64,000 nucleotides of DNA, taken from positions 2,144,001 through 2,208,000 of the forward strand of contig OY782781.1 in NCBI GenBank assembly GCA_963678315.1, written 5' to 3'. A program made the position numbers and the translations under genes. Shown here piece by piece: positions 13,101-46,518 of the stretch (positions are counted from its first letter, which is position 1; every line of letters begins with the position of its first letter). The stretch comes from Candidatus Cloacimonadales bacterium. GTDB lineage: Bacteria > Cloacimonadota > Cloacimonadia > Cloacimonadales > JAFGVF01. Under the pieces are notes generated by a model that was given only the letters and a program-made list of their open reading frames with translations, ran no database searches and was not told the origin of the DNA.

Positions 13101-13456
13101 TTATTTTAGTTTTTCGGATAAGGCAATACGATTCCCTTCCGAATCCTTAAATTCTGCAACATAACCAAACTCGCCTACTGATGTCTTTGGATAGATTCCC
13201 TCTCCACCATTTAAAACAGCCTTCTGTAAAGTCTCATCTATACTATCAGTGTTGAAATAAATAAACACTCCAGATAGTGTAGGCTTATAAACATCTCCTT
13301 TTACTAGAGCACCTGTAATTCCATCCTCCTTTCTATCAAATGGAAAGAAGGCCATCTCTAAACCATCAACATTATCAAGAATGAAGTCATAGCCAAAGAC
13401 TTCTTTATAAAAATGCATGGCTCTTTCTAAATCTAAAACAGGTATTTCAAAGTATC
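13101..13456 (-). pseudogene. VOC/glyoxalase family gene, main 3' portion, interrupted at codons 5-6 by the Mu-like element
   Basis: YFEIPVLDLERAMHFY...AEFKDSEGNRIAL; joins in frame to the 5' piece MNPVGY at 46501-46518. Confidence 0.9.
13452..13456 (+). repeat. Target-site duplication GTATC (left copy)
   Basis: Same pentamer at 46501-46505, directly outside both terminal inverted repeats. Confidence 0.92.
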
Positions 13457-13808
13457 TATAAAGTGACACCCAACTTTTCCATCTGCAATAACGATGTTCT
13501 AATCTTTTAAAGTCTTATTTTTTAGTATCTTGCACCTATTTTACATCGTTTTTTCAAAATTTCCATTTTAAACGCTTTCGAGGTACATTTCTGCCGTTCA
13601 GATTACAGTTTTACAGGAGCTTTGTAGGTGTGGAAATATGGGTGTCATCTCTAAAGCATTATAGATTAGTAGTTTATGGACTATTTTATTTTAGGGTTGA
13701 ACTGAAATCGTTTTTTTTCGTTTTTTCAGGGTGAAAAAGCGATTTCGATGTCTCATTTTAGGTGAAATAGCGTAAAAACGATTTTGAGATTGTGACAGTG
13801 TTATTTCC
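13457..13808 (+). repeat. Left end: TIR plus TGACA-N6/7-TTTCC putative transposase-binding sites
   Basis: Sites at 13464-13480 (+), 13632-13647 (-), 13793-13808 (+). Confidence 0.75.
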
Positions 13809-13883
13809 ATTTTGCAAAAACGATAAAAGTGGTACCTTTTTTTTTCATATTATCACATCAGATTATTTATCATAATATTTCTA

Positions 13884-13913
13884 TTGACATATCGAATACT
13901 AGGGTGCTATATA
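13884..13913 (+). promoter_or_regulatory. Putative sigma-70 promoter of the leftmost element gene
   Basis: TTGACA at 13884, TGCTATAT ~15-17 bp downstream, AAGGAGG RBS before ATG 13941. Confidence 0.45.
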
Positions 13914-13940
13914 TCTAATGTATTCACATAAGGAGGTAAT

Positions 13941-14582
13941 ATGAGTCTACAATCAATTGTTAATGAAATTTATTTACAAGACAGTATCAGAGTTGAAATT
14001 GACTTATGGTTAACAGGTCAGTGGTCTTTACAAAGAAAAAGAAAAAAAGAATCGATTACTTTTAGAAATTTTAAGTATAGAGATCTTTGGCGTGAATCTA
14101 ATTTAAGTATTGATTCATTGAGATCATTGTTATATAAAAACTTAACAAAAGAAGTTAACAATGAAATAAACAAGCCAATCATCGAAGAGGCTAGTGAATA
14201 CTTAAAAAGTATTTATAGTAAATATACTGATCAATACATTAGAAATGAAGTTTTATTCCAGATTTTTAAAAACTATTGCTTTGAAGTTAAAATAACACTT
14301 TCTGAAGTTTTGAAATGTTTAACTGATAAGGACTGCAATCTGATTCTTTCAAAATTATCTTTTGGAGAAATTAAGGAAGAAAATCAAACAATCATAATGA
14401 GTTATAACTTGGTTGAGAATAATGAAATTGTTGATGAGCATATATTCACTATCGGTAAACATATATTTACATTGCTTAAAGATAAGTGCAATAAAATTAC
14501 ATTTGATGAATTAGAAAATGAAGACCCTAACGAAGATACTTTAAAGAGATCAGAAAAATTTTCATGTCATAATGATTATTAA
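13941..14582 (+). CDS. Hypothetical protein (moron-like, own promoter)
   Basis: 213-aa ORF with strong RBS; no motif recognised. Confidence 0.65.
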   Translation: MSLQSIVNEIYLQDSIRVEIDLWLTGQWSLQRKRKKESITFRNFKYRDLWRESNLSIDSLRSLLYKNLTKEVNNEINKPIIEEASEYLKSIYSKYTDQYIRNEVLFQIFKNYCFEVKITLSEVLKCLTDKDCNLILSKLSFGEIKEENQTIIMSYNLVENNEIVDEHIFTIGKHIFTLLKDKCNKITFDELENEDPNEDTLKRSEKFSCHNDY

Positions 14583-14675
14583 AACTAATGATCAAAAAAC
14601 TAAATAACATATCTTAGCTAGGCGTTTAATTCATACAACTAGAGCTCTAGCTAGGATATTGTTACAAAAATATTA

Positions 14676-15404
14676 TTAAATCACCCTAAACAAGAATACC
14701 ATCTCACCTAAGATCCTGAAAGTCTCAAGTTCGTACTCTTCTATTATTATTACATCAAAATCTGGATTTAAAGGTTTCAGGATAACCCTCTTCTTCTCAT
14801 TATCGAATTGTAGCTTTTTAAGTGTCACTCCATCTGGAGTCTGACAAGCACTAATCTTGCCATCAAGACAAGGAATATCCATACTCTCTTTGATTACGAC
14901 TATATCCCCATGCATAATTTTAGGCTCCATACTCCTGCCATTAATTTTGAGAGCAATATACTTATCCTGGCTGTCTGAAAGATATGCTTTAGGTATCTCA
15001 ATATATTTTGATGGAGACTCATCATAACATTCTAATGGTTGACCTGCTGAAATCTCTCCATATATTGGGAGAGTAATATTTCTAGAATCGAATAGATTTA
15101 ACTTATGTTTAAAAACAGAATTATTACCTGTTAACTCTTCAATGTTCTTTTTTTGACCTTCTCCATATAGATTGCCATCAGCATCAGCAACAAACATTCC
15201 ACCTTTGCCAGTTAACAACCAATTTAAGTTCAAACCATAGCATTCATTTATTCTCGCCATGGCAGATGCCGAAGGTTTACTTGCTTTTTTTCTGTTCACC
15301 CAATCAGAAAGATTTCCTGGGGTTACCTCAATAGTTTTAGCAAAATCGGATCGCTTTATGTCTAGTGCATTTACGAACATTAACAGCCTATCTTTTATGT
15401 CCAT
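14676..15404 (-). CDS. CI/LexA-like repressor (HTH plus S24 peptidase)
   Basis: XRE HTH (FAKTIEVTPGNLSDW, NLNWLLTGKG); GEISAG cleavage site, GRSMEP Ser, TLKK Lys; start MDIKDR after AGGAG. Confidence 0.9.
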   Translation of the reverse strand: MDIKDRLLMFVNALDIKRSDFAKTIEVTPGNLSDWVNRKKASKPSASAMARINECYGLNLNWLLTGKGGMFVADADGNLYGEGQKKNIEELTGNNSVFKHKLNLFDSRNITLPIYGEISAGQPLECYDESPSKYIEIPKAYLSDSQDKYIALKINGRSMEPKIMHGDIVVIKESMDIPCLDGKISACQTPDGVTLKKLQFDNEKKRVILKPLNPDFDVIIIEEYELETFRILGEMVFLFRVI

Positions 15405-15429
15405 TTCATCTCCTATGTTAAGCACAACT

Positions 15430-15567: not shown

Positions 15568-15810
15568 ATGAGATCACCGTACTATCCAGCTGAAATAAAG
15601 TCAGCTATGTCTCTTAAAAGCATTACTATTAGGGAAATGGCTGAACAGCTTTTGGTCTCCAGGAGAACTATAGAATATTTTATTAATGAAGGTCGTAGAC
15701 TAAGACAAGCACAGGTTTTCTTAGAATTACTACAGCCTGAGCTTCGCGAAATCAGTAAAATCTATCGCAAACACACTAACAAAGATATTATAAGCTCTGA
15801 AAAGAGATAG
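15568..15810 (+). CDS. Ner/Cro-like HTH protein
   Basis: ITIREMAEQLLVSRRTIEYFI HTH; divergent from the repressor, directly before the transposase. Confidence 0.7.
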   Translation: MRSPYYPAEIKSAMSLKSITIREMAEQLLVSRRTIEYFINEGRRLRQAQVFLELLQPELREISKIYRKHTNKDIISSEKR

Positions 15811-15812
15811 TT

Positions 15813-17831
15813 ATGAGATATAGAGAACTATCAATCGAAGAAATACAAAAATTATTTGTATTAAGTAAAGCAGCTGCATATCGAATGACTAAAGCACATG
15901 AATGGGATTTCATCAGCGAGACATTAAAGAAAGGTGGAAGAAAGAAACTATATTTAGTTCCTGCTGATGCAATACCTGAAGAAGAGGAGCTAGCTAGACT
16001 AGTTGAGAACTCTTCCCTACCTGATGATGTAGAGTCAGATTTAGTCGAGTTTGATAATCCAGTAAATGATTTTGTACCACAAATAGTATTTTCACAACAT
16101 GAACTTTTAAGAGCTCAGTTAAAAGCTGAACTCTGTGAGAAAATATTATCTGAATATAAAAGACTAGGTGTTAAAAAGCATGCTGTTGATGAAGTGTTAG
16201 AAGTTTATAACTCAGGACTGTTATTACCAATATTATTCAAACTTGAAGGCTCTAGGACAGCACGTTCTATTCGTATGTGGCTTAAAGACTATGAAGATAA
16301 TGGCAGAGACTATAAAGTTCTGATTCGTTTATCTAAAGCATCAAGTATTAAGAAAGCAACTCTTAAGGAACAGAACTTTTTACTGGGACTATTGTTAGAT
16401 GCTAACAAAGTTAAGATTGGCACAGCTATTAGGAAGTTAAAGCAGTTTAGTAGACTTGGAGCTATTGAATCAGACACAAGTGGAAGAGCTCTTAGACGTT
16501 GGTGTGAAGAGTGGCGAGATAGTAACATACAACAGTGGAATATACTTCGAATGGGAGAAAAATATTCTAAGGACAACTACATATTTAGCCTTACACGTTC
16601 AGATGAACTAAACGTAGGCGATGTATGGGTTGCTGATGGTCATCAACTAGCCTTTGATATTATTGATCCTGATTCAGGAAAGCCTAAACGTATGATGCTT
16701 TTACTATTTTTTGATTGGGCAAGTAGATATCCTGTTGGAGCTTCACTTGCTAATACTGAAGACTCAGAGCATATCTTACTAGCATTAAGAAATGGTATCC
16801 TGCACTGGAATGGCAGACCTAAGTATGTCTATCTTGATAACGGTAGAGCTTTTAAATCTAAACTGTTCCATCAAAAATGGGATGAGCATAATCTTGAAGA
16901 TGAATTCTGTGGAGTATTCCCAAGATTAGATATCAAAGCAGAATTTGCTAAAGCCTATAATGCTAGAGCAAAGGTTGTTGAGAGATTCTTTAGAACATTC
17001 CAAGAAGATTTTGAACGCTCTATGAATACCTTTAGAGGTGCCAGTATAGCAGATAAACCTGCCTTCTTAATGAGAAACGAGAAGTGGATAAAAAAGCTCA
17101 AAAAACGTGAGCCTGTAACTATTGAAGAAGCCAAGAGTATGATGTCATTCTATTTTCAAGAGATGTATGGAAAAACACCCCATGGTGGACTTGCAGGTAA
17201 AACTCCTCTGGAAGTATTTAGAGCTAGTGAAGTACCTGAAGAGAGAAAGATTGAAGACTCTGAACTTAACTTCTTAATGTTGAAGATTGAGCAAAGGAAA
17301 ATTAGAGCCAATGGAGTTCAGCTCTTCAGTATAGTCTATTATCATGATTATCTCATGAACTATGTTGGGCAAAAAGTTTCACTACGCTATGATTTAATGG
17401 ATATGCGATCAGTTTTAGTCTATGATAAAAATGGCAAGATTATATGCCAGGCTTTAGCTAAGAAGAGTGTTCATCCATTTGTTAAACTTGCTGAGAATGA
17501 ACCTTTAGCTAAAAAGCAATGGCTTAAACAACTAGCTCATCAAAGAAGATTAGAGAAAGATGTTAAAGAAAAATCAGCTCTAATCCAAAAGCAAGTTCAA
17601 GAGGCAATTTCAGAGTTTGAACTACCAATTCTTAAAATAACAAACAGTGCTTTTAATGATTCAAGCATGTTAACACATAAAGCTACTTTTAATCCAAGCA
17701 TTGACCTTGATAAAATGGCAGAAAGTACAGCACATATAATTTCAACATCACAACAACTACCTATTAAAACAATAGAAGAACGAGGACTTGAGAATCTCGA
17801 TAAAATGCTTAAACAGATCGGTATAGATTAG
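15813..17831 (+). CDS. MuA-like DDE transposase
   Basis: WVADGH / YLDNGRAF / KVVERFF triad; Mu transposase C-terminal-like region (RKIRANGVQL...VSLRYDLMDM). Confidence 0.92.
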   Translation: MRYRELSIEEIQKLFVLSKAAAYRMTKAHEWDFISETLKKGGRKKLYLVPADAIPEEEELARLVENSSLPDDVESDLVEFDNPVNDFVPQIVFSQHELLRAQLKAELCEKILSEYKRLGVKKHAVDEVLEVYNSGLLLPILFKLEGSRTARSIRMWLKDYEDNGRDYKVLIRLSKASSIKKATLKEQNFLLGLLLDANKVKIGTAIRKLKQFSRLGAIESDTSGRALRRWCEEWRDSNIQQWNILRMGEKYSKDNYIFSLTRSDELNVGDVWVADGHQLAFDIIDPDSGKPKRMMLLLFFDWASRYPVGASLANTEDSEHILLALRNGILHWNGRPKYVYLDNGRAFKSKLFHQKWDEHNLEDEFCGVFPRLDIKAEFAKAYNARAKVVERFFRTFQEDFERSMNTFRGASIADKPAFLMRNEKWIKKLKKREPVTIEEAKSMMSFYFQEMYGKTPHGGLAGKTPLEVFRASEVPEERKIEDSELNFLMLKIEQRKIRANGVQLFSIVYYHDYLMNYVGQKVSLRYDLMDMRSVLVYDKNGKIICQALAKKSVHPFVKLAENEPLAKKQWLKQLAHQRRLEKDVKEKSALIQKQVQEAISEFELPILKITNSAFNDSSMLTHKATFNPSIDLDKMAESTAHIISTSQQLPIKTIEERGLENLDKMLKQIGID

Positions 17832-18562: not shown

Positions 18563-19663
18563 ATGGAAATATCTAATTTTAAGAAAGTAAGAAACTTTAT
18601 TGAGTATTTTGGTAAGCCATTTACCTGCACAGTTGTTGCAGGTGAAACTGGTTTAACTAAAGTACAAGCGACCAAAGTATTGGGTAGAATGTTAACTAAA
18701 GGAATTATTAAAGCCATTTCTAAAGAAGGAAAATACGCTATCTACGTTAAGAATAGCGATTATAAAGAATCAAATCTAGTTAACAGCTACAATTTTGAAA
18801 TAAAATTTTTAAAGAACATTATCAAGAAATTGAAAAGTGGAGACTTCACTAGTGCTAGGCAGATAGCAGAATCCCTTGGTTGTGAGAAGAAACGTTTAAC
18901 ACGTTATTTGGTAGCACTCTGTTCTATTGGAATAGTAGATGTTGTTGATAGACAATATAAAGTCGTTAAAGACATCGATCTACTTCTAGTTGGAAGTAAG
19001 TTTGATAAATTAATTTTAAAGAAACTCAAAGCCAAAAACGTTGAGTTTGAAGAAGGAGTAATAATGGGAAGAAAGGAGAAGATGCTATATGATGCTAATG
19101 GAAGAGAGTACCCAGCAAAGATACTTGATCCTCACATCGTAAAGAGAGATACAGTCGTTAATCGTCTTATGGGTAAAGCTATAAAACTACATGATAAAAT
19201 TGAATCTGATAAGATTAAAATGGCTGAAGATATTGATAAGTATTTAACCCAGACAGCTCAGAAGTATGGAGAAGAGTGGAAAGGTAATGCAGAGTTAGTA
19301 TCTTTTGATGGTAAGTACAAGGTTGAAATTAGACAAAGAGAGCATATTGATTTCAGTGAAAAACTTCAAATAGCTAAACAGAAGATTGATGATTGTTTAA
19401 AGCGTTGGAGTGAAGATTCAAATATTAATCTTCAGGCTGTTATCAAAGAAGCCTTTCAAGTTGATAAGAAAGGAGAGATTGCTAAAAGCAGAATCTTAGG
19501 TCTTAGACGCTATAACATCAAAGATAAACAGTGGCAACAAGCAATGGATTTAATCGATGAGGCTATCCAGGTAACTTCAACTAAACAGTATATCGCCTTT
19601 TATGAAAGAGCAAGCAAGGATAAGTCATTCAAGCTTGTCTCACTTAATTTTAGTGCATTATAG
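18563..19663 (+). CDS. Tandem winged-HTH protein fused in frame to a DUF3164-like Mu-phage protein
   Basis: Two HTH-like segments; C-term KGNAELVSFDGKYKV...AFQVDKKG...WQQAMDLI; internal GAAGGAG RBS and ATG at 19064. Confidence 0.7.
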   Translation: MEISNFKKVRNFIEYFGKPFTCTVVAGETGLTKVQATKVLGRMLTKGIIKAISKEGKYAIYVKNSDYKESNLVNSYNFEIKFLKNIIKKLKSGDFTSARQIAESLGCEKKRLTRYLVALCSIGIVDVVDRQYKVVKDIDLLLVGSKFDKLILKKLKAKNVEFEEGVIMGRKEKMLYDANGREYPAKILDPHIVKRDTVVNRLMGKAIKLHDKIESDKIKMAEDIDKYLTQTAQKYGEEWKGNAELVSFDGKYKVEIRQREHIDFSEKLQIAKQKIDDCLKRWSEDSNINLQAVIKEAFQVDKKGEIAKSRILGLRRYNIKDKQWQQAMDLIDEAIQVTSTKQYIAFYERASKDKSFKLVSLNFSAL

Positions 19664-19795
19664 ATAATTTATCAGCAAAGTGACTGCTCCTAATCCTGGG
19701 AGTGTTTCTCTTTGCTTATTTTTTTGTGGTAACTGTAGGCATCGAGGTTTGACGATATCCTCTAGTCTGTTTAGATAGCTCCAGGAGATATAAAT

Positions 19796-20008
19796 ATGGT
19801 ACAAGTTTTTAATGAGAGCAGATGCTACACTCCAGTTGGAGTAGCAGAAATATTGAGTGTAGATATAAGTACAATCTACAGATTGATAAGAGACATTGAT
19901 GATCCTCTTCCTGCATTTAGATTAAAGAATAATGGGCAGTTAAGAGTTCATGGAAAAGAAATCAACAAATACCTAGAAGATCATAAAGTTGATCCTCTTT
20001 ACGAATAA
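19796..20008 (+). CDS. Excisionase-like HTH protein
   Basis: YTPVGVAEILSVDISTIYRLI...LPAFRL. Confidence 0.75.
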   Translation: MVQVFNESRCYTPVGVAEILSVDISTIYRLIRDIDDPLPAFRLKNNGQLRVHGKEINKYLEDHKVDPLYE

Positions 20009-20013
20009 ATAAA

Positions 20014-20397
20014 ATGACTGAAAGGCAGATTGAGTTAGCAAAGCGTTTGAGAAAGAAGATAGTTATTTTCGCAAAAAATGATCTCCGAATAACTATGGAT
20101 GAACTTCATTATCAGATGCAAACTTTAGGATATGGAATATCTTTAAGAGCACTCAATCTGCCTTCTTTAGTTAACTTAAATCTTATCATCCGAGGAAAGC
20201 AAAACCATATCTATGAGAATCTTGATCCTCAAGGTAAGAAGATATGGGCACTCTATAAATCATCTAATTGGAGTAAAGACCAGTTGTATGCATTTATAGC
20301 TCAGAAATTTAGCAAATCAGGAATCAAATATCTAACCAAAAATGAAAAAGGAACTTTAATTAAAGTCTTACAATCTTATGAACTCAAGAGAATATAA
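20014..20397 (+). CDS. Mu GemA/gp16-like protein
   Basis: Position and pattern KKIWALYK...LYAFIAQKF...YLTKNEKGTLIKVL. Confidence 0.5.
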   Translation: MTERQIELAKRLRKKIVIFAKNDLRITMDELHYQMQTLGYGISLRALNLPSLVNLNLIIRGKQNHIYENLDPQGKKIWALYKSSNWSKDQLYAFIAQKFSKSGIKYLTKNEKGTLIKVLQSYELKRI

Positions 20398-20839
20398 AAT
20401 AAAACGTATATCAGCTAAAAAGCTCTATCTTAAGGGTGAAACTAATGCAGTAGCACTTGCTAAGATTTATGATGTTGCCGAAAAGACAGTCAGGAACTGG
20501 ATTAAGAAAGGTAACTGGGAAGCTGAACATGATGAGATAGCATCTCTTGAAGACAAGATTAAGATAGCTCTTAAGAAGGCTTTAATTAAAGCTCTAACAG
20601 AATATGCGAGAGCACCACAAGACACTGCTCTTCAATCTTTAGTATCACTGCTTAGACAGTACAAGAAAGATTTCGAACCTACCAAAGACTTTATCGAATA
20701 TATGAAAAAGTTCTTAGATTGGCTTGTTGATTATTTCTTAACTAAAAATGATGATGAAATAGCCAGATCAATTCAAAAAGAAATTTTAGGAGAATCTGGT
20801 ATTGTAGAATATTTTAGAAAGAGAGCAAGTAGTGGTTAA
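20378..20839 (+). CDS. Probable terminase small subunit (N-terminal HTH)
   Basis: AKKLYL...LAKIYDVAEKTVRNWIKKGNW; directly upstream of the large subunit. Confidence 0.65.
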   Translation: MNSREYKIKRISAKKLYLKGETNAVALAKIYDVAEKTVRNWIKKGNWEAEHDEIASLEDKIKIALKKALIKALTEYARAPQDTALQSLVSLLRQYKKDFEPTKDFIEYMKKFLDWLVDYFLTKNDDEIARSIQKEILGESGIVEYFRKRASSG

Positions 20840-22376
20840 GATTACTCAAAAAGATTATAAGAACTTTTCGGACATTGCTTCCAAAACTTCCAGTGTGAAA
20901 CCATTTCAAAATGATACACCTACTAAACAGAAGCAAAGAATAAGAAAGGCTACTGGTGAAAACTGGTCAGCCTTCTCTTATTTTTGTGTAAGTTATTTTC
21001 CTCATATTTTCAAACTAGCATTTGTAGATGCTCATCAGGAGATGTTTGAGATTACTGAAAAGTATAACGGTGTAACATCTATTACAGGTTTTAGAGGACT
21101 AGGTAAGACAGTTCTGATGGGTGTAGTCTACCCTATCTGGAAAATTATTAAAGGTGAGAGATATATTATTCACACTGCTGCTGATGCAGATTTAGCAGAA
21201 GAGAGAACATCATTTACTTATAATGAGTTAACTCAGAATAAAAGACTTCAGCTTGATTTTGATGGGATTATGCCAGTTGATAGAGATGAATCAGATTTCT
21301 ATCTTCAGAACAAGTGCAGAATAAGAGCTAGAGGTATTAAGCAATCTTTTAGAGGAAGTATTAACCCTAGAACCTCTACAAGACCAGGACTAGTTATCTG
21401 TGATGATATTGATAAAGAGGAAAACATTGGTAATCAATCCATTGGTAAGAAGAAGATGGATAAGATTATTCAAGAGATTGGTGGAGCATTGAACCCTTCA
21501 GGAGATGGTAAAATAATCTGGCTTGGTAATCTAGTACATCCTAATTATGCAATCTGTCAATTCCAACAAGACATCATTGATGAGTTAAAATCAGAGATCA
21601 AAGAGTTTAATCCAGAGAATGTCAAACATCTCTATGGCTTGGAAAAGCGACTCTTGAGATTTCCATTAGAGAATCAAGATGCACAAAGCGTCTGGGAAGA
21701 ACAATATCCAACTGAAGAATTACCAAAGCTGAAGAAGAAGTTTGGCTTAACAGGATATCAAAGAGAATTTTTAGGAAAACCAGTAATTGAAGGAAACATG
21801 TTCAAGTTCCACTGGTTTATGAAATATACTACTATTCCCAAAAGATTTAAAAGAATATGGATGTATGCAGATCCTGCTTGGGGAGAAAAAGGTTGTTACA
21901 AGGCTATTATTTCTATTGGTTATGATGGTTATAAGTTCTATGTACTCCATATCTGGATTAGGCAGACCGAGAACAGTAAGTTCTTTAGTTACTACTATGA
22001 TGCCTACTCAGAATTATCCAGGAAGTATGGAGTCAGATTTAGAGCTGCAATTGAGACTAATTTTGGTCAACACAGGATATTAGCTGATTTTGATAGATGG
22101 TGTAAAGAGAACAATCGCCATCCAATATCACATAGAATCAGAAGAATCAACAATGATAAAAATAAAAATCTTAGAATTGAAAGAACAGATACTACAATCG
22201 AAACAGGTAAAGTGCAATTTCCAGATGGTCAAGATACTCCCACTCTTATAAACCAGTATTTAACATATCCAGATGGTTATGTAGATGGCCCTGATGCCTT
22301 AGCTGGCTGTTTAGAGAGATTCCCAGAATATGACACTGGAAAATCTAGAGTCAGAGTTAGGAGTTTTTCGTTTTGA
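20832..22376 (+). CDS. Terminase large subunit
   Basis: Walker A GFRGLGKT, Walker B LVICDDID, nuclease motifs YADPAW and DGPDAL. Confidence 0.85.
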   Translation: MVKITQKDYKNFSDIASKTSSVKPFQNDTPTKQKQRIRKATGENWSAFSYFCVSYFPHIFKLAFVDAHQEMFEITEKYNGVTSITGFRGLGKTVLMGVVYPIWKIIKGERYIIHTAADADLAEERTSFTYNELTQNKRLQLDFDGIMPVDRDESDFYLQNKCRIRARGIKQSFRGSINPRTSTRPGLVICDDIDKEENIGNQSIGKKKMDKIIQEIGGALNPSGDGKIIWLGNLVHPNYAICQFQQDIIDELKSEIKEFNPENVKHLYGLEKRLLRFPLENQDAQSVWEEQYPTEELPKLKKKFGLTGYQREFLGKPVIEGNMFKFHWFMKYTTIPKRFKRIWMYADPAWGEKGCYKAIISIGYDGYKFYVLHIWIRQTENSKFFSYYYDAYSELSRKYGVRFRAAIETNFGQHRILADFDRWCKENNRHPISHRIRRINNDKNKNLRIERTDTTIETGKVQFPDGQDTPTLINQYLTYPDGYVDGPDALAGCLERFPEYDTGKSRVRVRSFSF

Positions 22377-23251
22377 CATATTTTGATAAGCTTATTTACC
22401 AATACTACCAAGTTTTGAACAACTCCTGGAAGAAGGAAATCAAAGATTCAGCCAAGCAAGCTCTTCAGATGCTAGCAGATATCCCAAAACATGAAAGAAT
22501 AAATAAGAGCCATATAGACGACATCTTAAACATAATAGCCTCCAACATGGGAGAAGACTTTTCATCGCTTGTACGCACCGATACGAAGGCTTTCATCAAA
22601 AGAAACCTCCTATTAGGTCTTAGTGATGCCAAGAAACAAGTGCCAAATAATATATCGATAGGAATATATGGAATCAGAGAAAACAAATTAGAAACTCTCA
22701 TCACTAAACAAAATCTCTTCTGGATAGGAAATAAGTATGGCACAGATATCGAAACCAGATTCAAGAACACACTTAAAGAATCGGTATCTTCAGGATTTAC
22801 CAAAGAGATGCTTGCTAATAAGCTAAAAGAAGAGTTCAAATCTCTTGGAGATAAGAATCAACACTACTGGCAAGGTTTAGCTGAGCATACAGCCCTTAGA
22901 ATACGAGAATTTGGAAGATTAGAAGGATATCATAAAGCAGGAGCTACAGGCTACAGGCTTGTTGTTGTACTTGATGATAGAACATCAGAGATTTGCAGAG
23001 CTTTAGCAAGCCAGGACAAAGTATATCCTGTAGATACTGCTATTGATACTATGAACCAGCTATTAAGCATAAATACCAATAAACACTCCTTAGACACAGT
23101 TAGAGAAATGACTAAGCAGATAGCTCCTTGGGTTTCTGATAAACAAATAAAAAGAGACCCAACTGGTAATCCAATTGGAGTCTCTGTAAATTATTCACCT
23201 TTCCCGCCATTTCATTGGAGATGTAGGACTACTACTGAAATTGTTTATTAG
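22373..23251 (+). CDS. Head morphogenesis protein (Mu gpF / SPP1 gp7 family)
   Basis: LDDRTSEIC and PPFHWRCRT motifs. Confidence 0.85.
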   Translation: MTYFDKLIYQYYQVLNNSWKKEIKDSAKQALQMLADIPKHERINKSHIDDILNIIASNMGEDFSSLVRTDTKAFIKRNLLLGLSDAKKQVPNNISIGIYGIRENKLETLITKQNLFWIGNKYGTDIETRFKNTLKESVSSGFTKEMLANKLKEEFKSLGDKNQHYWQGLAEHTALRIREFGRLEGYHKAGATGYRLVVVLDDRTSEICRALASQDKVYPVDTAIDTMNQLLSINTNKHSLDTVREMTKQIAPWVSDKQIKRDPTGNPIGVSVNYSPFPPFHWRCRTTTEIVY

Positions 23252-23255: not shown

Positions 23256-24266
23256 CTATCCTTTAGTGCAATATTTTATGTATTCTTCTGTAAAACTATT
23301 AGATAGTTCTGTATCTTCATAAATAATATCAAATTGGTTACTTAAATAAGCTCTACACATTGTTTTAACTTCCCTTTGCCCAGCTATATGAATTACTTTC
23401 TGCTCAATTTTCAGATTTAATTTTTTTGCAGTATGACTTTGGGTACCAATAATAATTCCTCTGTCAACTTTATCTCTAACAAGAATCTCAATCATCCTTT
23501 GTTTTACTTGTTTGGTTACCTCTCTATTGTACCAGTTTTTTATTTCAACATAAATAGCTTCAGATGTAATTGGATCTTCTAGTATTAAGTCTTTTCCTCC
23601 ATCTTTACTACTAGGTGTAAGAAAAGTTTTATACCCCAATCCTTCAAATAATTCTGCAAATAAATGTTCAACATTCCTCCAATCTATTTTTTTAAAAATG
23701 TTACCATCTCTAACAAGTTCATGAATTAAAGATTTACAAGCATTCCTAATTATCATATAATATGGAGATTTGTTTAACTCATCATATTTCTCAATAGTTC
23801 TTAATAATCCATTCTCCCATAATCTAATTAGTTGGTCATACACTATATGTGCTTTTCGTATAAATAACTCTTGGGGGATCTTTTGAGAAAAATCATCAGG
23901 TAAGAAGTTTTCTAACAGAATAGAGTTAAGCCTTAAACTATTTCTAAGCTTTTTGATTTGCAATGGTAATTTATTCTCATTTTCAACATCTAACATAATA
24001 ACAGTCACAGGAATATCATGTGAAGTAGCATATTGTAACTCAGTCTCAACTAAGGTATGCCCCCATGCATCTCTAATTGAAGGTAATTCAGACCCTATTA
24101 TAAAGCCAAAATGATTGGATAAATCAATCAAAGATTTAACATCTCGTGATTCTTCTCCATTTTTTTCTAAAACTGTATATCCTAATCTAGTTAAAACTTC
24201 TCTAACTATGTCTCGAACAAAAGGTGATAGTCCTGTAAAAGGACCTGAAATGAATACATTTTTCAA
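23256..24266 (-). CDS. DUF4062/TIR-like N-terminal domain plus Mrr-like restriction endonuclease
   Basis: N-term VFISG...LVETELQYA; C-term FAELFEGLGY...DGGKDL...YVEIKNW PD-(D/E)xK motif. Confidence 0.7.
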   Translation of the reverse strand: MKNVFISGPFTGLSPFVRDIVREVLTRLGYTVLEKNGEESRDVKSLIDLSNHFGFIIGSELPSIRDAWGHTLVETELQYATSHDIPVTVIMLDVENENKLPLQIKKLRNSLRLNSILLENFLPDDFSQKIPQELFIRKAHIVYDQLIRLWENGLLRTIEKYDELNKSPYYMIIRNACKSLIHELVRDGNIFKKIDWRNVEHLFAELFEGLGYKTFLTPSSKDGGKDLILEDPITSEAIYVEIKNWYNREVTKQVKQRMIEILVRDKVDRGIIIGTQSHTAKKLNLKIEQKVIHIAGQREVKTMCRAYLSNQFDIIYEDTELSNSFTEEYIKYCTKG

Positions 24267-24276
24267 ATATTAACTC

Positions 24277-24762
24277 CTAATTTCTTTTATCTATCATATC
24301 TTCAATTTCTGCATCCTGAATTTTATCTCTCGCGAAACTTATTGGAAATAAACTTAATATCAAACTCCAAATTAATAGTAGAGTCTGTATTGATATGAGT
24401 GAAAATAATACACCTCTGAATATTAATTTGTAGGAGAAAAGATTTTTAAATTGGTAAACTAAAGGACTAAAGACACTAAACAGTAAACTAAAAATTATTA
24501 TCAATGTAGAATAAAGTAATGGTTTTGATAACCTGTCGAAATTTTCTACTTTTCGATATTTACCATCATATGCTACTTTTAGTAATTCTGGCTGTATAAT
24601 TGCAATCCAAGCTCCCATTATACCAAATATTATTGCCGATGTTGTTCTTAGTGATTCAAGGGTTGCAAATTGATTAGAAACTGGAATTTTCATTCCTAGA
24701 AAAAAAGAACAAATTGCGATAAGAGTTATCATAACAATAAAAATTAATGTTTTTATTTTCAT
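24277..24762 (-). CDS. Multi-pass membrane protein (~4 TM)
   Basis: Hydrophobic segments; LRTTSAIIFGIMGAWIAII; starts 2 bp after the upstream gene. Confidence 0.75.
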   Translation of the reverse strand: MKIKTLIFIVMITLIAICSFFLGMKIPVSNQFATLESLRTTSAIIFGIMGAWIAIIQPELLKVAYDGKYRKVENFDRLSKPLLYSTLIIIFSLLFSVFSPLVYQFKNLFSYKLIFRGVLFSLISIQTLLLIWSLILSLFPISFARDKIQDAEIEDMIDKRN

Positions 24763-34096: not shown

Positions 34097-35056
34097 TTAA
34101 AACTTATCATTTTGTTGAATCTCTTTAGCAATGCCTTTTTTTTTCAATTCATCATAACTACCTAATCTTTCGTTATAGGAACCGTTGAAGCTATCTAAGT
34201 CTTTTTGCTTAATTTCTGTCTTTAGTTTGCTTTTATCAATTTGTACAACTCCTTGAGGCCAGATAGGAAATTCGACTACTTGTATATTGTTTGAACTTGT
34301 TATAATGAATTCTATAAAAAAAAAGCTGTGCTTATTACCTTGATTAATAAAAACAACTAAAAGACAATAGCTTTGTTCATCAATATACTGTAATTTACAT
34401 GACTTCATTTCTTTAAATTTAATCTTTGAGAAGTCATTAATTTTAGCATTTTTTAAATATCGTTTCATAGAAGATAAATCATTATTATTAAGTGAGTTCT
34501 TTAGTTTATGTATGAAGTTATTAATCTTAAGTGTAAGGTTAGTATAGGGTAATAACTTAAAAAATAGGGTCTTATTATCAATCAGATGATAAAGCTCAAT
34601 TTCATTAGTATACTTATATATTATTTCTCTGACTTTACTCTCTTTAAGTTTAAATCTCTGGGCAATTTTAGCTTTTGATTCTTTCTCTATATAGAAATAC
34701 TCTAATATTCTTCTTTCTCTATCTTTATGTGCAAGAAAAAGATATTTACTAAAATCAATCTCAAAATCTATAATTTCACTACTATTTTCTTGATTTTTAT
34801 TTGAAAAAAAATCAAGTTTATCTTCTTCTACATGAACGGCTAATAATCTTTTTTGCTTAGTAAAATAATCATTACATAAGTTAGTAACTACCTTTCTAAT
34901 CCATCCTTTAGGATTAGCAATCTCTATTACTCTTGAAATCTTTACAAGCTTAACCAGACAATCACTTGCAAAATCCTCAGCTAATTCATAATCATTAACT
35001 ATTTTATAAGCAGTTACCTTTGCAGATTCAAAATACTCTTTAAAACTATTAACCAT
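34097..35056 (-). CDS. ECF-type sigma-70 factor with long C-terminal extension
   Basis: AYKIVNDYELAEDFASD...WIRKVVTNLCNDYF (region 2); ILEYFYIEKESKAKIAQRF (region 4). Confidence 0.75.
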   Translation of the reverse strand: MVNSFKEYFESAKVTAYKIVNDYELAEDFASDCLVKLVKISRVIEIANPKGWIRKVVTNLCNDYFTKQKRLLAVHVEEDKLDFFSNKNQENSSEIIDFEIDFSKYLFLAHKDRERRILEYFYIEKESKAKIAQRFKLKESKVREIIYKYTNEIELYHLIDNKTLFFKLLPYTNLTLKINNFIHKLKNSLNNNDLSSMKRYLKNAKINDFSKIKFKEMKSCKLQYIDEQSYCLLVVFINQGNKHSFFFIEFIITSSNNIQVVEFPIWPQGVVQIDKSKLKTEIKQKDLDSFNGSYNERLGSYDELKKKGIAKEIQQNDKF

Positions 35057-42247: not shown

Positions 42248-42730
42248 AATGTCATTCCCTATAACATTCATCCTAAAGGATTTTACAACTCTGGTGGTGA
42301 AACTACAGAGTAGTTAAAAGTATTAAAAGCTACTCTTATGCTCCATAATTTAACTATCATTTCAGTGTCTGAAGGAACTATCAAATTAGTCAATAAAGCA
42401 GACTCTAACACAAATCTAATTGTGGTTGAAAAGGCTGATGTGATAGAGTTTAAACGTAAAAGAATAAATCGTACAGTACCTGATACTTCCATCCTAGATT
42501 GTTTAATTGGTGATTTGAAACTCTTGAAAAACATTTTATCAGATTCTTACATTGAACTTTTAAGTCAGATTTGGGAGCTAACATCCACTATCGACAATCT
42601 TGAGAAGTACACTATCTCACTGTTTGATAGAATACAAATTGAAGATAAACAATACAAGGTTACTGAGATTCAACGAGATACAAAAGAAAATGAATACAAA
42701 TTAAAAGCATGGGAGTTACCTAATGTTTAA
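42248..42730 (+). pseudogene. 3' remnant of a phage structural (tail-region) gene
   Basis: ORF 42338-42730 has no RBS; its frame extends upstream through TAG at 42311 (NVIPYNIHPKGFYNSGGETTE*LKVLKATL); overlaps the next operon gene. Confidence 0.55.
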
Positions 42731-43172
42731 GTTTGATGGTTTTAGAATCATCTCAATAACTGATGGTATAGTAGATGGTTATGTAGTTCCAGATGCAACA
42801 GTTGAGTATCAGCCTGAAATCAAATACAGGATAGAAAAGAAGAATGCTTTTGATCCAACTATCATTATTAAAAGAGATCCTTATCATGATGACCAGATTG
42901 AATGCGAAGCTATACTATTACCAACTGAATACAACACTCTATGTAGTCATTTAACAACTGCTGATCAACTATTTATAGAGTTTGATACAGCAAGCCAAAC
43001 TTTACAATTTCCAGTTACAGTCGATAAACTACCAAAACTTGAAGATGAAACCAGATCATTTAAAAGCCAAGTTAAATTCACACTTAGTTCAATCTATACC
43101 TCTCTTGAATTCATAGACTTTGATAATGTCTTTGGCTATGGAAATGACTGGGGTGAGAACTGGGGATTTTAG
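42723..43172 (+). CDS. Phage hypothetical protein (distal tail region)
   Basis: Coupled operon; C-term FGYGNDWGENWGF. Confidence 0.6.
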   Translation: MFKFDGFRIISITDGIVDGYVVPDATVEYQPEIKYRIEKKNAFDPTIIIKRDPYHDDQIECEAILLPTEYNTLCSHLTTADQLFIEFDTASQTLQFPVTVDKLPKLEDETRSFKSQVKFTLSSIYTSLEFIDFDNVFGYGNDWGENWGF

Positions 43173-43181
43173 GAGAAAAAT

Positions 43182-44006
43182 ATGTCAGAAACAAATAACT
43201 ATAATTTATATAAACCTGCCTCTGGTGAATCAGGATGGGCTCAGGCACTTAATAGCAACTTTGATATCATAGATACTCAAATTAAATCAGCTCATGATAG
43301 TATTTCAAACCATACTAGTTCAGGAAGTAACAAGCACACAGCATCACAGATTAGCACAGCTGATGGCTCTAATGTTGAATCTAAACTATCAACACTATTT
43401 TCAAGTAAAGCAGACACGAGTCACACTCATGATTATGCAAATTCAAATCATGCTCATAGTACAGATAGTGTTAAGAATAACCAGGGAACTTCACTTACAT
43501 CTATCTTAGGGCAGTTAGATTCAAAGGTAGGAAGTATTGAAAATACGCTAAAGTTTCTATCACCAAACCTTGATAAAGTAACAGTATCAGCATTCATAAC
43601 TAATCAAGCTAGTGGTATTAGAATCATGTGTAGCCTTGTGCCATTAATAAACGTACATAATTGGAATATACGTGTTATAAAAGCAGGTAGAACCTTAGCT
43701 GAAGCAACTAGTGCTAGTTCTTATATTTTTATACATAAGGATTCATTAGAGGGCATATCTGATGGTGAAACTGTTGAAGTAGTTGTTACTGCCTTATCAG
43801 GTCAAAGCAGTCAGACAGCAGTTTATAGCCACAAGTTTATGCATATTAATACACATATAGAAGAACGCTTAGACAGTGTAGAACATCAACTTACTATCGG
43901 AAATATCATAGATGCATTTGCTCAAGATGCTGATGCCTTGCAAGCACTTGCCAATGTTCTTCATTCATCAAACACCTTAGCACAGAAAGTAGCAGAGTTA
44001 AGATAA
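43182..44006 (+). CDS. Tail-fibre-like protein
   Basis: TNNYNLYKPASGE...LNSNFDIIDTQIK and KADTSHTHD motifs typical of fibre N-termini. Confidence 0.65.
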   Translation: MSETNNYNLYKPASGESGWAQALNSNFDIIDTQIKSAHDSISNHTSSGSNKHTASQISTADGSNVESKLSTLFSSKADTSHTHDYANSNHAHSTDSVKNNQGTSLTSILGQLDSKVGSIENTLKFLSPNLDKVTVSAFITNQASGIRIMCSLVPLINVHNWNIRVIKAGRTLAEATSASSYIFIHKDSLEGISDGETVEVVVTALSGQSSQTAVYSHKFMHINTHIEERLDSVEHQLTIGNIIDAFAQDADALQALANVLHSSNTLAQKVAELR

Positions 44007-44248
44007 TGAATTCAATTAGAGAAAACACCCTTTTTGATTTAATTAACAGAAAGACAAAACCAACCATCTCAACAGATAAGAATATAGCCTTTATAAAGCC
44101 TGTCTATTCAACTGTTGATGAGAAAGAAGATTTAGGAATCCAGGACCAGAACCTTATTCTTTCAGGAGAAGAGTTTCCAAGCTCTGCGAGAGATGGTCAA
44201 ATATTCATAAAGAACGGAAAAACATATATTTATAAGGAGAACCAATGA
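44006..44248 (+). CDS. Phage hypothetical protein
   Basis: TAATG coupling; FPSSARDGQIFIK...YIYK. Confidence 0.6.
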   Translation: MNSIRENTLFDLINRKTKPTISTDKNIAFIKPVYSTVDEKEDLGIQDQNLILSGEEFPSSARDGQIFIKNGKTYIYKENQ

Positions 44249-44406
44249 CTTTTAAAGAGTTACTTCAAACACAGAAATTAGAGCTTACCCAGGAACATGA
44301 AAAGCTAAGAAGAGTTATCAACGATTCAAATCAAAGACTTCTTAAAACTGAAGGAGCCCTACTTATGATACAACACCTTGAAAAGCAAACATTAGAAGAG
44401 AAATAG
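44245..44406 (+). CDS. Small coiled-coil protein (53 aa, below ORF-track cut-off)
   Basis: AAGGAG RBS, ATGA overlap; MTFKELLQTQKLELTQEHEK...LEEK. Confidence 0.6.
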   Translation: MTFKELLQTQKLELTQEHEKLRRVINDSNQRLLKTEGALLMIQHLEKQTLEEK

Positions 44407-44407
44407 T

Positions 44408-44980
44408 ATGAGTGGTGTATGGAGAGAAATACTTGATTCAGCCAAGCTTGGAGTTGCAGGAGGTATAGCTCAATTAGATGGTTCGGGATTGCTTAAAGAT
44501 ACTCAAGTTCCATCTATCCCCTCAACTAAGATTACAGGATTGATTCCAGCCAATAGCATACCTAATATTGATGCATCTAAAATCATATCAGGAGTTCTTG
44601 GAACTAGTAGAATACCAAGTCTAGACGCATCAAAGATAACTTCAGGATCATTCTTATCAAGCAGAATACCGACACTAGAGCAAAGCAAAATTAATGGTTT
44701 ATCTACAGCTCTTAATAGTAAAGTTAACACTTCAAGAAAGATAAATGGCAAAGCATTAACAGCAGATATATCGATAGATAAAGGAGATGTAGGGTTAACT
44801 AATGCAGAGAATAAATCCTCTGCTACCATAAGATCTGAAATATCACTGACTAACATAATTGATACAGGAATCGATACTTCCTCAATTATAAAGCAAGTTA
44901 CTCAACTACCTGCAAGTGGAAATGATGGTCAGATGGTTAAGCTTAATGGCTCGATTTACGTGTGGAAGGATACAGTTTAA
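44408..44980 (+). CDS. Tail-fibre-like repeat protein
   Basis: GVAGGIAQLD; repeated IPxxDASKIxSG; DVGLTNAENKSSATIR. Confidence 0.7.
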   Translation: MSGVWREILDSAKLGVAGGIAQLDGSGLLKDTQVPSIPSTKITGLIPANSIPNIDASKIISGVLGTSRIPSLDASKITSGSFLSSRIPTLEQSKINGLSTALNSKVNTSRKINGKALTADISIDKGDVGLTNAENKSSATIRSEISLTNIIDTGIDTSSIIKQVTQLPASGNDGQMVKLNGSIYVWKDTV

Positions 44981-45636
44981 TGTGGGAAAAGATAGTTCAA
45001 AATAGAGAGCCTAAAGATATTTATAGTGATGAATTACAGTCTTATGATTATACTTTAGGAGAGGCTGTTCCTTCAAATCCTGATTTTATTCATACTAATG
45101 GAGGATTAGTTTTAACTATAAAAGTGCCTGTCTTGTTAGTAAATTGGGAAACTGTCTTCCAGGATAAAGAGAATCCTCTCTTTCAGATATACAAGTATCT
45201 ACCCAAAGAGATAGATAAAAGTGAGCTTTACCATGAAGAGTTGGTTAAAGATGCTGTTGCTGGACCTAATGAAATAGACTGTAACATCTATTTAACTCCA
45301 GGAAGATATTATTTTAAGTTGTCAAACTGTAAAGTGGCATCATGCCCTACTACCTCATTTATACCTGAGAATAGTTTTATTATGCTTAATGATTGTCATG
45401 ATAAGAGTGATATTCCTAACTGGATTCAATACCCGATTAGTACTATTTGGCTAGCTTTTTATGGCTTAGAGTTTAGGATTAGAAAAGCTGATTTATACTT
45501 AGGATTTGAACCTTCAAAGCTACCAGACCACCTACTACTAGAGGGTGCTTTTTATCATTCTATTGATCAAGATGGAGCTATTAGGACCTACATATATCAC
45601 GATAAGCAACAGTTTATTGAAGGTCAGAAAATTTAG
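44980..45636 (+). CDS. Phage hypothetical protein
   Basis: Probable start MWEKIV by TAATG coupling; last plus-strand gene of the operon. Confidence 0.6.
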   Translation: MWEKIVQNREPKDIYSDELQSYDYTLGEAVPSNPDFIHTNGGLVLTIKVPVLLVNWETVFQDKENPLFQIYKYLPKEIDKSELYHEELVKDAVAGPNEIDCNIYLTPGRYYFKLSNCKVASCPTTSFIPENSFIMLNDCHDKSDIPNWIQYPISTIWLAFYGLEFRIRKADLYLGFEPSKLPDHLLLEGAFYHSIDQDGAIRTYIYHDKQQFIEGQKI

Positions 45637-45647
45637 CAAAAAAAAAT

Positions 45648-45675
45648 AAGCCCATCGTTTAAAGCTGATGGGCTT
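45648..45675. terminator. Bidirectional terminator
   Basis: AAGCCCATC-N10-GATGGGCTT between convergent genes, with an A-tract on the left. Confidence 0.7.
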
Positions 45676-45681
45676 TATAAT

Positions 45682-46050
45682 TTACCAAGTTCTAACCTTA
45701 TAAGTAACATCATTATATTCAAATTGCTCTAAATCAATCTTAGCAAGTTTAGCTATCTTATCAAACAACTGACCTAGTTCATCACGTTCACCAGTTTCAA
45801 TTAAGGTCTGTCCAGTCATCCCATCAAGATAATTAAAATCTATTACAGCTTTTTCAATAAGTTTAATTTTAAGATCTTGTTTAGCTCTTAAGCCAGCCTT
45901 AGCTAAGTTACTAATTAAGGTATCCATAATTTCAACTGCTCCATCACAGTTGGCTTTGCTGTATTGAGTCATGCCATCATTAAAATATCCTCTCCAAGTT
46001 TTAAAAGGGTAGCTTGTCTTTACCTGTTCTAATCTCTCTTTATAAGTCAT
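45682..46050 (-). CDS. Conserved right-terminal hypothetical protein, copy 1
   Basis: MTYKERLEQ...YPF...IETGERDEL...VRTW; AAGGAG RBS; paralogue at 61114. Confidence 0.8.
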   Translation of the reverse strand: MTYKERLEQVKTSYPFKTWRGYFNDGMTQYSKANCDGAVEIMDTLISNLAKAGLRAKQDLKIKLIEKAVIDFNYLDGMTGQTLIETGERDELGQLFDKIAKLAKIDLEQFEYNDVTYKVRTW

Positions 46051-46186
46051 CGTTAACTCCTTTAACTTCATTAATTTATATCTCTATATTAATGGTTTAA
46101 TGAAAGAAGTCAAGTCAAATAGACACTATTTTTAATATTTAACTACATATTATACAACAAGTTAGAGCTTATTTAAGTATAAAAAG

Positions 46187-46500
46187 TGACAGTACTTTTT
46201 CCTTAATCAAAAAATGGAAATGACGCTGTCACAAATTGAAGTAGCATATAATAGTCTAACTAACTAATAGCTATAAAGTTAAAGCTAAATTGATATAGTT
46301 ATACAGAACTGACAGAGTTTTTTCCTTAATCGTTATTTCAAAACAGAAAATGGAAACTATGCTGTCATTTGCAATTTTGGTTAGTAAAGTATGTTAAATG
46401 TTTAATATGTGGGGTTTTAACTGGCATAGAAGTCTATTCATATTGTTGAACTAAGGAAATCACGCTGGCACAACAAGGAAAAAACGCCTGTCACTTTATA
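46187..46500 (-). repeat. Right end of element 1: six TGACA-N6/7-TTTCC sites plus TIR
   Basis: Sites at 46187, 46216, 46310, 46352, 46455 (TGCCA variant) and 46477; TGTCACTTTATA at 46489-46500. Confidence 0.8.
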
Positions 46501-46518
46501 GTATCCTACTGGGTTCAT
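46501..46518 (-). pseudogene. 5' fragment (MNPVGY) of the split VOC gene, including right TSD GTATC
   Basis: AAGGA RBS, ATG AAC CCA GTA GGA TAC, in frame with FEIP at the left junction. Confidence 0.9.

Follow-up and report, generated by a model that had tools for sequence, protein, structure and literature searches.

The closest described systems to the element reported here are the transposable phages of the Mu and B3 types. As far as the accessible text of one study goes, every Mu- and B3-like phage described earlier had the conserved TG-CA ends, and D3112-like phages acquire genes at a central position (PMC8705779). The same accessible text describes Leptospira prophages with TA-TA ends (WETA1 type), which make 6-bp duplications, measure 37.9-40.4 kb, and are described as full-length; in it, the authors leave open whether the TA-TA type exists in other bacteria (PMC8705779). 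We analyzed a 64,000-nt stretch of DNA, hereafter the window, from a Candidatus Cloacimonadales bacterium (assembly GCA_963678315.1, contig OY782781.1, positions 2,144,001 to 2,208,000). In it, a 33,044-bp element (13457-46500) splits a gene of the VOC/glyoxalase family. This element is very probably derived from a prophage of the Mu family, residing in a Cloacimonadota-type chromosome. Its ends read TA...TA, for which the Leptospira prophages, as they appear in the accessible text, are the sole precedent that we found.

Results

A precise insertion splits a VOC-family gene

Both junctions can be read directly. On the left, TTCAAA and GTATC (13452-13456) are followed by TATAAAGTGACA at 13457-13468; on the right, TGTCACTTTATA (46489-46500) is followed by GTATC (46501-46505) and then by CTACTGGGTTCAT through 46518. 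The terminal inverted repeat (TIR) is perfect over 12 nt, and the GTATC direct repeat that flanks it on both sides, the target-site duplication (TSD), falls within coding sequence. In-silico excision of the element and one GTATC yields a minus-strand open reading frame (ORF) of 122 aa that begins MNPVGYFEIPVL and encodes the N-terminus MNPVGYFEIP, with AAAGGA 9 nt 5' of the restored ATG. The insertion point is codon 5/6 of this 122-codon gene, so that a stretch of four and a third codons at its start is now separated from the rest by 33 kb. The initial annotation had claimed an exact insertion with these junctions and a reconstructed gene of this length, start, and upstream motif, and all of this reads as it said. 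The VOC body matches Pfam PF00903 with 39.2 bits (cut-off 20.6) and Ble-like_N with 31.8 bits (cut-off 24.5); by family match and restored N-terminus, the interrupted gene belongs to the VOC (glyoxalase/bleomycin-resistance/dioxygenase) superfamily, with a predicted enzymatic role. Neither border of the element coincides with a step in GC composition.

An assembly artefact, or a chance configuration of repeats with no biological insertion, has to be weighed here. The source looks metagenome-derived and the relatives are metagenome-assembled genomes (MAGs). Moreover, the real window has four perfect 12-nt inverted repeats (copies >500 nt apart) that adjoin a 5-bp direct repeat, compared with about one per run in 30 first-order Markov simulations (maximum two), and because of this the TIR and TSD statistic is not decisive by itself. 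Four other results decide: (i) the restored N-terminus, (ii) the contiguous gene in relatives, (iii) the Mu-type gene set, and (iv) a second, related right end in the window.

For the first of these, we used the 117-aa truncated protein as a query, which returned 968 relatives, and read the N-termini in the non-self part of the listing (119 proteins). The FE[IL]P strand is present in 118 of the 119 and the longer NPxx[YFW]FE[IL]P in 105. Five start with exactly MNPVGYFEIP, including the four best matches, P0002-P0005 (122, 122, 122, and 120 aa), so that the N-terminus that the initial annotation had called normal for the family proves to be so. For the second, a scan of genome contigs with the VOC protein gave 64 loci, which were examined by tblastn; the queries were the GNAT protein, the VOC protein, and the 710-aa oxidoreductase. 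At L001 and L002, both on Cloacimonadales chromosomes (73% and 70% identity), the VOC gene is uninterrupted at 122 codons, starts ATGAACCCAGTTGG..., and is preceded by a similar AAGGA motif. The check in relatives suggested earlier thus found the contiguous VOC gene but not the empty GNAT-VOC-oxidase site: the three genes occur together at none of the 64 related loci, among which the window's own genome is not included. A GNAT-like neighbour was seen only at L013, L019, and L022 (Pedobacter), with 35-37% identity, on the opposite strand and without the oxidoreductase.

Misassembly would account neither for a duplication of exactly 5 bp at the place where the N-terminus of the four best homologues is restored in frame, nor for Mu-type ends whose motif sites sit symmetrically, 8-24 and 176-191 nt from each terminus. 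We consider an artefact scarcely credible, and the observation of a precise insertion is confirmed.

The length of the duplication depends on how the termini are read. An A precedes both GTATC copies, and a 6-bp duplication (AGTATC) with asymmetric ends would restore an identical gene; the element would then be of the B3/Tn552 and Leptospira TA-TA type and would span 13457-46499, one base shorter at the right. In the accessible text on transposable prophages, the only TA-ended ones described make 6-bp duplications (PMC8705779). This reading would, however, leave asymmetric termini (TATAAAG... versus ...CTTTAT), with a right end of AT and not TA, and the right end of the second element also reads ...TTTATA; we regard it as unlikely. 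Symmetric termini give, most simply, a 5-bp duplication. The initial annotation had taken 5 bp as the hallmark of Mu; the length holds on the symmetric reading, but duplications of 5 bp are made by Tn7 and Tn3 as well and do not single out Mu. We call the element Mu-like because of its gene content, not its duplication.

The left end of the element supplies a GTG start and four codons (M-S-L-Y and part of R) to a fusion ORF at 13101-13469, so that MSLYRYFEIP replaces MNPVG... at the N-terminus. The VOC body is still an open frame of its 117 original codons, with 100% query coverage and 73% identity to P0002. The beheaded gene may still be translated if transcription exits the element's left end; a promoter and terminator scan of this end gave 17 promoter-like sites versus 12.7 expected, an uninformative excess. 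Because the element-derived GTG may keep the gene translated, the intact frame is an unreliable sign of the recent insertion that the initial annotation had suggested; selection, and not recency, might equally well account for the 117 intact codons. Protein database entry P0001 has the same fused form. It is recorded on a 2,988,751-bp contig and its cluster consists of two member sequences; the separate contig could be a sister assembly with a different state of the VOC locus.

A Mu-type gene set adjoins the left end

The left end is adjoined by a Mu-type gene set in canonical orientation (Table 1). The repressor gene reads toward the left end, as Mu c does, and is followed rightward by genes for the small helix-turn-helix (HTH) protein, A, B, the DUF3164 protein, the TerS-like protein, TerL, and MuF; the module order through MuF is also found in RcapMu, phiRTG5, and Mu. 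Judged by these profile matches and positions, the left end has the regulatory layout of Mu (leftward repressor, then ner-like gene, A, and B rightward). The third gene of this series is a predicted MuA-type DDE transposase with an apparently intact triad in the contexts VWVAD(275), LDNG(342), and VVERF(390) and a D-D spacing of 67; its rve match (1.8e-6, 28.6 bits) lies under the Pfam cut-off of 32.6. The ATPase has a Walker A motif GPPGLGKS and a Walker B motif IIIIDEID, and its BLASTP matches include the B proteins of RcapMu (5e-13) and Mu (5e-5). The DUF3164 protein is 37% identical to that of phage B3 (BLASTP E 4e-42). Within the packaging and head block (20378..23251), no portal gene lies between TerL and MuF. 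With transposase, ATPase, repressor, and packaging genes in Mu order, the attribution to Mu made in the initial annotation is upheld.

The transposase belongs to a family of 429 proteins at E<=0.001 among 7,999 scored, its close homologues being 663-682 aa long. Taxon-bearing names among the 120 matches listed comprise 18 from Cloacimonadota and one from Bacteroidales. The 3,016,564-bp contig on record for the window's transposase is also given for its paralogues P0122 (79% identity, 679 aa) and P0139 (58%, 825 aa), and for this reason the source genome probably holds several such Mu-type elements. Two other relatives, P0131 and P0133, are recorded on contigs of 30 and 37 kb. All 271 matches to phage records have <60% identity, and none of the 271 covers >=80% of the query in one place; the best are phiRTG5 (32%) and BalMu-1 (33%), in the catalytic core only. 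The nearest phage matches of TerL, at about 25% identity, are from RcapMu, Campylobacter CAM-P21, and Helicobacter prophages.

Several results weigh against this reading, and the indecisive repeat statistic above may be added to them. Between the transposase and MuA itself the sequence distance is very large (27% over 131 aa by BLASTP, E 3e-5). Among solved structures, the best match by sequence is to TnsB from a type V-K CRISPR-associated transposon (CAST; E 4e-11), and MuA is absent from such matches at E<0.01. The termini read 5'-TA...TA-3' and not the 5'-TG...CA-3' of the Mu and B3 types. The portal fragment and the three small ORFs before it lie about 10 kb downstream of TerL-MuF, past the first cargo block, and this irregular order indicates a history more complex than one insertion and simple decay.

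The second of these points would suit a non-viral transposon of the Tn7-like or Tn5053/Tn402-like kind (TnsB/TniA with TnsC/TniB). Tn7-like transposons make 5-bp duplications and carry several subterminal binding repeats, as Tn5053-like families do; the ATPase matches Pfam TniB (1.2e-8), and the element has much cargo and no working virion module. However, we scanned 32 element ORFs against Pfam, PHROGs, and NCBIfam, and TnsA, TniQ/TnsD, and a resolvase were found among none of them. The TerS-like, TerL, MuF-like, DUF3164, and CI-type repressor genes and the portal fragment stand in Mu order, the transposase matches phrog_310 near full length (3.4e-85) and the ATPase matches phrog_296, and the element ends do not begin TGT. 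A transposon of this kind is very improbable, and we retain the derivation from a Mu-type prophage.

The element ends share a repeated motif

The pattern TGACA-N5-7-TTYCC has 13 matches in the window versus 0.70 expected (100 shuffles, none of which reached 13). Of these, three fall within the element's left 352 nt, five within its right 314 nt, and three in the right end of the second element; the other two are coding matches, in two genes homologous to each other (33124 and 48662). A TGCCA variant at the right end, detected with a looser pattern, is additional to the 13. Each terminus has one copy at 8-24 nt, directed inward, and another at 176-191 nt in the opposite orientation, and the right-end copies are arranged as two facing pairs (46187/46216 and 46310/46352). 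Beyond the 12-nt TIR, a TTTTCC block at positions 19-24 is common to both ends. On the Mu paradigm, we regard the repeated motif as a set of putative transposase-binding sites.

The second element's right end reads ...TGTCAATTTATA and ends at 61943. The right ends of the two elements align at 81% mean column identity, with motif blocks better conserved than spacers, and the similarity ceases right after ...TTTATA. As for known phages, the Mu, B3, and RcapMu records begin TG; the ends of the phiRTG5 record are not trimmed to the transposon termini and are uninformative here.

The element is defective and half cargo

The portal gene of the element is truncated and no virion or lysis set was recognised; the element is therefore defective, as the initial annotation had supposed. 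We classify it as a defective Mu derivative because of its length of 33,044 bp, the truncated portal, and the lack of matches to capsid, tail, and lysis families. The portal-like sequence comprises the first ~211-213 residues of a protein that is ~400 residues when full, and the last ~25 codons of the ORF are read-through. The alignment to the portal relatives P0241 (415 aa) and P0242 (421 aa), both of which have a PF04860 match, ends at query residue ~211; their C-terminal halves match nowhere in the window. A library-wide search gave 21 proteins at E<=0.001, nine of 387-405 aa that are matched over their first ~210-230 residues only and 12 shorter ones (67-270 aa). The break lies at ~34,088, directly against the stop of the opposite-strand ECF-type sigma gene. 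Capsid, protease/scaffold, connector, tail (including tail-tube), tape-measure, endolysin, and holin families gave no match in Pfam, PHROGs, and NCBIfam.

Cargo makes up ~16 kb, about half of the element, and ~17 kb remains after subtracting both blocks. In the first block, neighbouring ORFs match both PDC-M18 models, which makes the pair a candidate defence system with a predicted anti-phage role; together with the Mrr-like gene, it likely forms a prophage-borne defence islet in mid-element. The adjoining subtilase (Peptidase_S8 8.9e-50) and 322-aa protein have C-terminal sorting domains of the type IX secretion system (T9SS; Por_Secre_tail 4e-8 and 1e-13, TIGR04183 6e-13). In the second block, the 251-aa and 1483-aa ORFs have hydrophobic, signal-like N-termini and the 360-aa ORF a lipoprotein-like leader. 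The 1483-aa ORF combines a Beta_helix match (0.0062) with a T9SS domain (Por_Secre_tail 6.4e-9), and this C-terminal domain is 48-50% identical to those of ORFs 62100-63560 and 51629-58312, the former (50%) lying outside both elements. Beyond the second block, a 190-aa ORF (44408-44980) matches a tail-fibre family (phrog_23008, 2.5e-10), and the block of six ORFs that contains it is possibly the leftover of a tail-fibre region; an Atlas search with the 274-aa ORF gave weak leads only (best 0.83).

Such matches, and the many ORFs without a family match, could also belong to a temperate phage that is complete and inducible, with a capsid, a tail, and lysis genes too divergent to be recognised and with the giant T9SS-tagged beta-helix proteins as its tailspikes. 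Beta-helix proteins are common as phage tailspikes. Yet the portal stops at ~213 of ~400 residues with the remainder absent from the window, the 1483-aa protein has a signal-peptide-like start and a host-type T9SS domain that shares 50% identity with its counterpart in a chromosomal gene outside the elements, and only ~17 kb is left outside the cargo, versus ~23 kb for the late genes alone in RcapMu. We give a complete phage very little credence, and treat the element as a defective derivative.

The gene order is unlike that of RcapMu and phiRTG5, and this suggests that at least one rearrangement, or recombination between two prophages (a hybrid origin), preceded the present state. No convincing internal repeats mark the cargo boundaries.

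A second related element lies downstream

A left-truncated relative of the element occupies the right part of the window (Table 1). By blastn, 32508-33268 matches 48046-48806 (87%) and 45682-46500 matches 61114-61939 (73%). Of the 141-aa gene, the second element keeps the last 45 codons (67% identity). The 154-aa gene (94%) and only the first 64 codons of the 124-aa gene (86%) are kept in ORFs at 48157-48827. An IS4-like transposase sits at the break of the 124-aa gene, and the remainder of that gene and any portal remnant are missing. At the other side, its 129-aa minus-strand gene (61114-61503) is 77% identical to 45682-46071, and its motif copies fall within 61657-61932. In both elements, the interval from the conserved small ORFs to the right end holds large genes for secreted proteins; in the second, it holds two T9SS-tagged proteins (343 and 2227 aa) together with a 914-aa ORF (Pfam). 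These genes differ between the elements, and their similarity is confined to the ~85-aa sorting domains.

The 2227-aa protein (51629-58312) combines a beta-helix and a T9SS sorting domain with a dockerin-like segment. Seven copies of a 300-nt repeat lie in its gene at spacings of alternately 714 and 654 nt, alternate copies being 93% and 77% identical to the first. These long repeats were seen by a separate repeat search; Tandem Repeats Finder gave none at 47-62 kb with score >=200 and period <=500. Abutting the left side of the second element are six minus-strand tRNA genes at 47213-47850 (Gly-GCC, Leu-TAA, Gly-GCC, Leu-TAA, Cys-GCA, and Gly-GCC), in which the Gly-Leu pair is duplicated with 97% identity over 191 nt.

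Table 1. Positions in the window, strand, and supporting evidence for the features of the interrupted locus, the element, and its second relative
Feature	Position	Strand	Evidence
VOC gene body (original codons 6-122 within 13101-13454), now 122-aa fusion ORF	13101..13469	-	Pfam PF00903, ORF list
Left TSD copy, GTATC	13452..13456		identical to 46501-46505
Left end: TIR TATAAAGTGACA (13457-13468) and three TGACA-N5-7-TTYCC copies	13457..13808	+	direct reading, motif scan
Left-end motif copies	13464-13480 (+), 13632-13647 (-), 13793-13808 (+)		motif scan
213-aa ORF between left end and repressor	13941..14582	+	no Pfam, PHROGs, PADLOC, or NCBIfam match
CI/LexA-type repressor (HTH and S24 self-cleaving peptidase)	14676..15425	-	Peptidase_S24 1.7e-21, Phage_CI_repr 1.2e-5, phrog_4 1.1e-37
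80-aa small HTH protein, Mu ner position, first of rightward early operon	15568..15810	+	weak HTH_11 0.0038; assigned by position only
Predicted MuA-type DDE transposase, 672 aa, D275/D342/E390	15813..17831	+	Mu-transpos_C 5e-18; phrog_310 3.4e-85, residues 18-594
MuB-like AAA+ transposition ATPase, 237 aa	17840..18553	+	phrog_296 'DNA transposition protein' 1.1e-26; AAA_22 2.5e-12; TniB 1.2e-8
Early/middle genes: 366-aa, 70-aa, and 127-aa proteins	18563..20397	+	Pfam
366-aa DUF3164 protein, N-terminal winged-HTH-like region	18563-19663	+	DUF3164 1.3e-54
70-aa HTH_17 protein	19796-20008	+	HTH_17 3.9e-8
TerS-like DNA-binding protein	20378-20839	+	phrog_4151 3.5e-10
Large terminase TerL	20832-22376	+	phrog_38 5.6e-60
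MuF/SPP1-gp7-like minor head protein	22373-23251	+	phrog_241 3.9e-13; TIGR01641 6e-10
Cargo block 1a, defence-type genes	23256..25805	-	Pfam, PADLOC
Mrr-like nuclease	23256-24266	-	Mrr_cat 2.4e-15; PADLOC mREase_IV 1.1e-6
PDC-M18B	24277-24762	-	PADLOC 3.7e-39
PDC-M18A	24765-25805	-	PADLOC 2.1e-84
Cargo block 1b: 1540-aa S8 subtilase and 322-aa protein, both with T9SS C-terminal sorting domain	25975..31586	-	Pfam, NCBIfam
Three small ORFs (141, 154, 124 aa) common to second element	32197..33454	+	no Pfam, PHROGs, PADLOC, or NCBIfam match
Truncated portal gene, 236-aa ORF	33455..34165	+	Phage_portal 2.9e-5; portal_PBSX 4.4e-5, N-terminal profile part only
Cargo block 2: sigma gene and divergent plus-strand ORFs of 65, 251, 360, and 1483 aa	34097..41877	.	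NCBIfam, Pfam
ECF-type sigma factor	34097-35056	-	TIGR02937 sigma70-ECF 1.8e-11
Six ORFs (130, 149, 274, 80, 190, 224 aa)	42338..45636	+	only 190-aa ORF with family match
129-aa ORF beside right end, conserved in second element	45682..46071	-	no Pfam, PHROGs, PADLOC, or NCBIfam match
Right end: terminal repeat TGTCACTTTATA (46489-46500) and six motif copies	46187..46500	-	motif scan, right-end alignment
Right-end motif copies	46477-46493 (-), 46455-46470 (-, TGCCA variant), 46352-46367 (-), 46310-46325 (+), 46216-46231 (-), 46187-46202 (+)		motif scan
Right TSD copy and orphaned first VOC codons (ATG AAC CCA GTA G)	46501..46518	-	N-terminus agrees with homologues
Second, left-truncated relative of the element; left boundary approximate	48023..61943	+	blastn, tblastn/blastp, Pfam, motif copies
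IS4-like transposase	49184-50341		DDE_Tnp_1 7.3e-8

Discussion

On the Mu paradigm, the insertion would have proceeded as follows. The DDE transposase would bind the repeated subterminal sites at both ends and nick the 3' ends; the MuB-like ATPase would pick the target, and the transposase would link the nicked ends to its two strands with a 5-bp stagger. The GTATC copies on each side would then arise by gap repair or replication. The repressor, transposase, ATPase, and both ends look intact from their sequences, and for that reason the element may still transpose, like a large mini-Mu. The element may already have been defective before entering the VOC site: fewer events would then be needed after insertion, and a hybrid origin with later transposition would agree with this. 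That the element, with its non-canonical TA...TA termini and 5-bp duplication, is a Mu derivative which forms no virion but still moves is possible, but we hold it as doubtful.

A gene disrupted by a transposable prophage is a well-understood event, and the defective state is typical of prophage decay. What is unusual here is mainly the TA...TA termini with a 5-bp duplication, and further the defence and T9SS cargo and the second remnant nearby. The locus offers an exactly delimited Mu-type element in a phylum without cultured phage; judged by titles and the beginnings of abstracts, we found no paper in the collection searched linking Cloacimonadota with Mu-like phages. The defined ends, candidate transposase-binding sites, and target duplication are ingredients for a mini-Mu-type genetic tool, and defined ends aid the recognition of such prophages in MAGs. 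If the doubtful reading of a still-mobile element is correct, Mu-type elements of Cloacimonadota would survive as large transposons and carry defence genes (Mrr-like, PDC-M18) and loci for T9SS-secreted proteins about the chromosome. The second remnant, which has different secreted-protein cargo in the corresponding place, would have come about in the same way. The ends also bear on a question raised in the accessible text on the Leptospira prophages, whether the terminal CA, supposed to be invariant in this transposase family, can be replaced outside Leptospira; the TA-ended class, in that text seen only in Leptospira and with 6-bp duplications, would then also occur in the uncultured phylum Cloacimonadota (PMC8705779).

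How does the element compare with known systems? With the Mu-like phages (Mu, RcapMu, phiRTG5, and BalMu-1) it shares a short target duplication, a leftward repressor followed rightward by a small regulator, DDE transposase, and AAA+ ATPase, a TerS-like protein, TerL, and MuF, and possibly, in the motif repeated at both ends, a set of transposase sites; a DUF3164 gene is found in B3 and phiRTG5, as in the element. In contrast, those phages end TG...CA, whereas the element ends TA...TA and is very distant in sequence, and they are ~36-39 kb long with complete head, tail, and lysis modules, which the element, at 33,044 bp and half cargo, is without. The order is TerL-(small ORFs)-portal-MuF in RcapMu and TerL-portal-MuF in phiRTG5, but TerL-MuF, cargo, the 141-, 154-, and 124-aa ORFs, and the portal fragment in the element. 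Capsid, tail, and lysis genes occupy the right-hand ~20 kb of RcapMu and phiRTG5, where the element has two non-phage blocks instead.

Tn7-like transposons and type V-K CAST have, like the element, a DDE transposase with Mu-transpos_C and an AAA+ ATPase. Unlike them, the element is without TnsA, TniQ, and Cas genes, has phage packaging genes and a CI-type repressor, and does not have TGT ends. Mini-Mu and 'grounded' defective prophages resemble it in having kept the ends, A, and B while losing morphogenesis genes, and in gathering accessory and defence genes in mid-element; unlike these, it is a natural element of 33 kb with host-type loci for T9SS-secreted proteins. The Leptospira TA-TA prophages, a likeness drawn from what the accessible text describes, are Mu/B3-like with TA ends, as the element is; they have a 6-bp TSD and are full-length, whereas the element has, most simply, a 5-bp TSD, measures 33 kb, is defective, and resides in a Cloacimonadota-type host.

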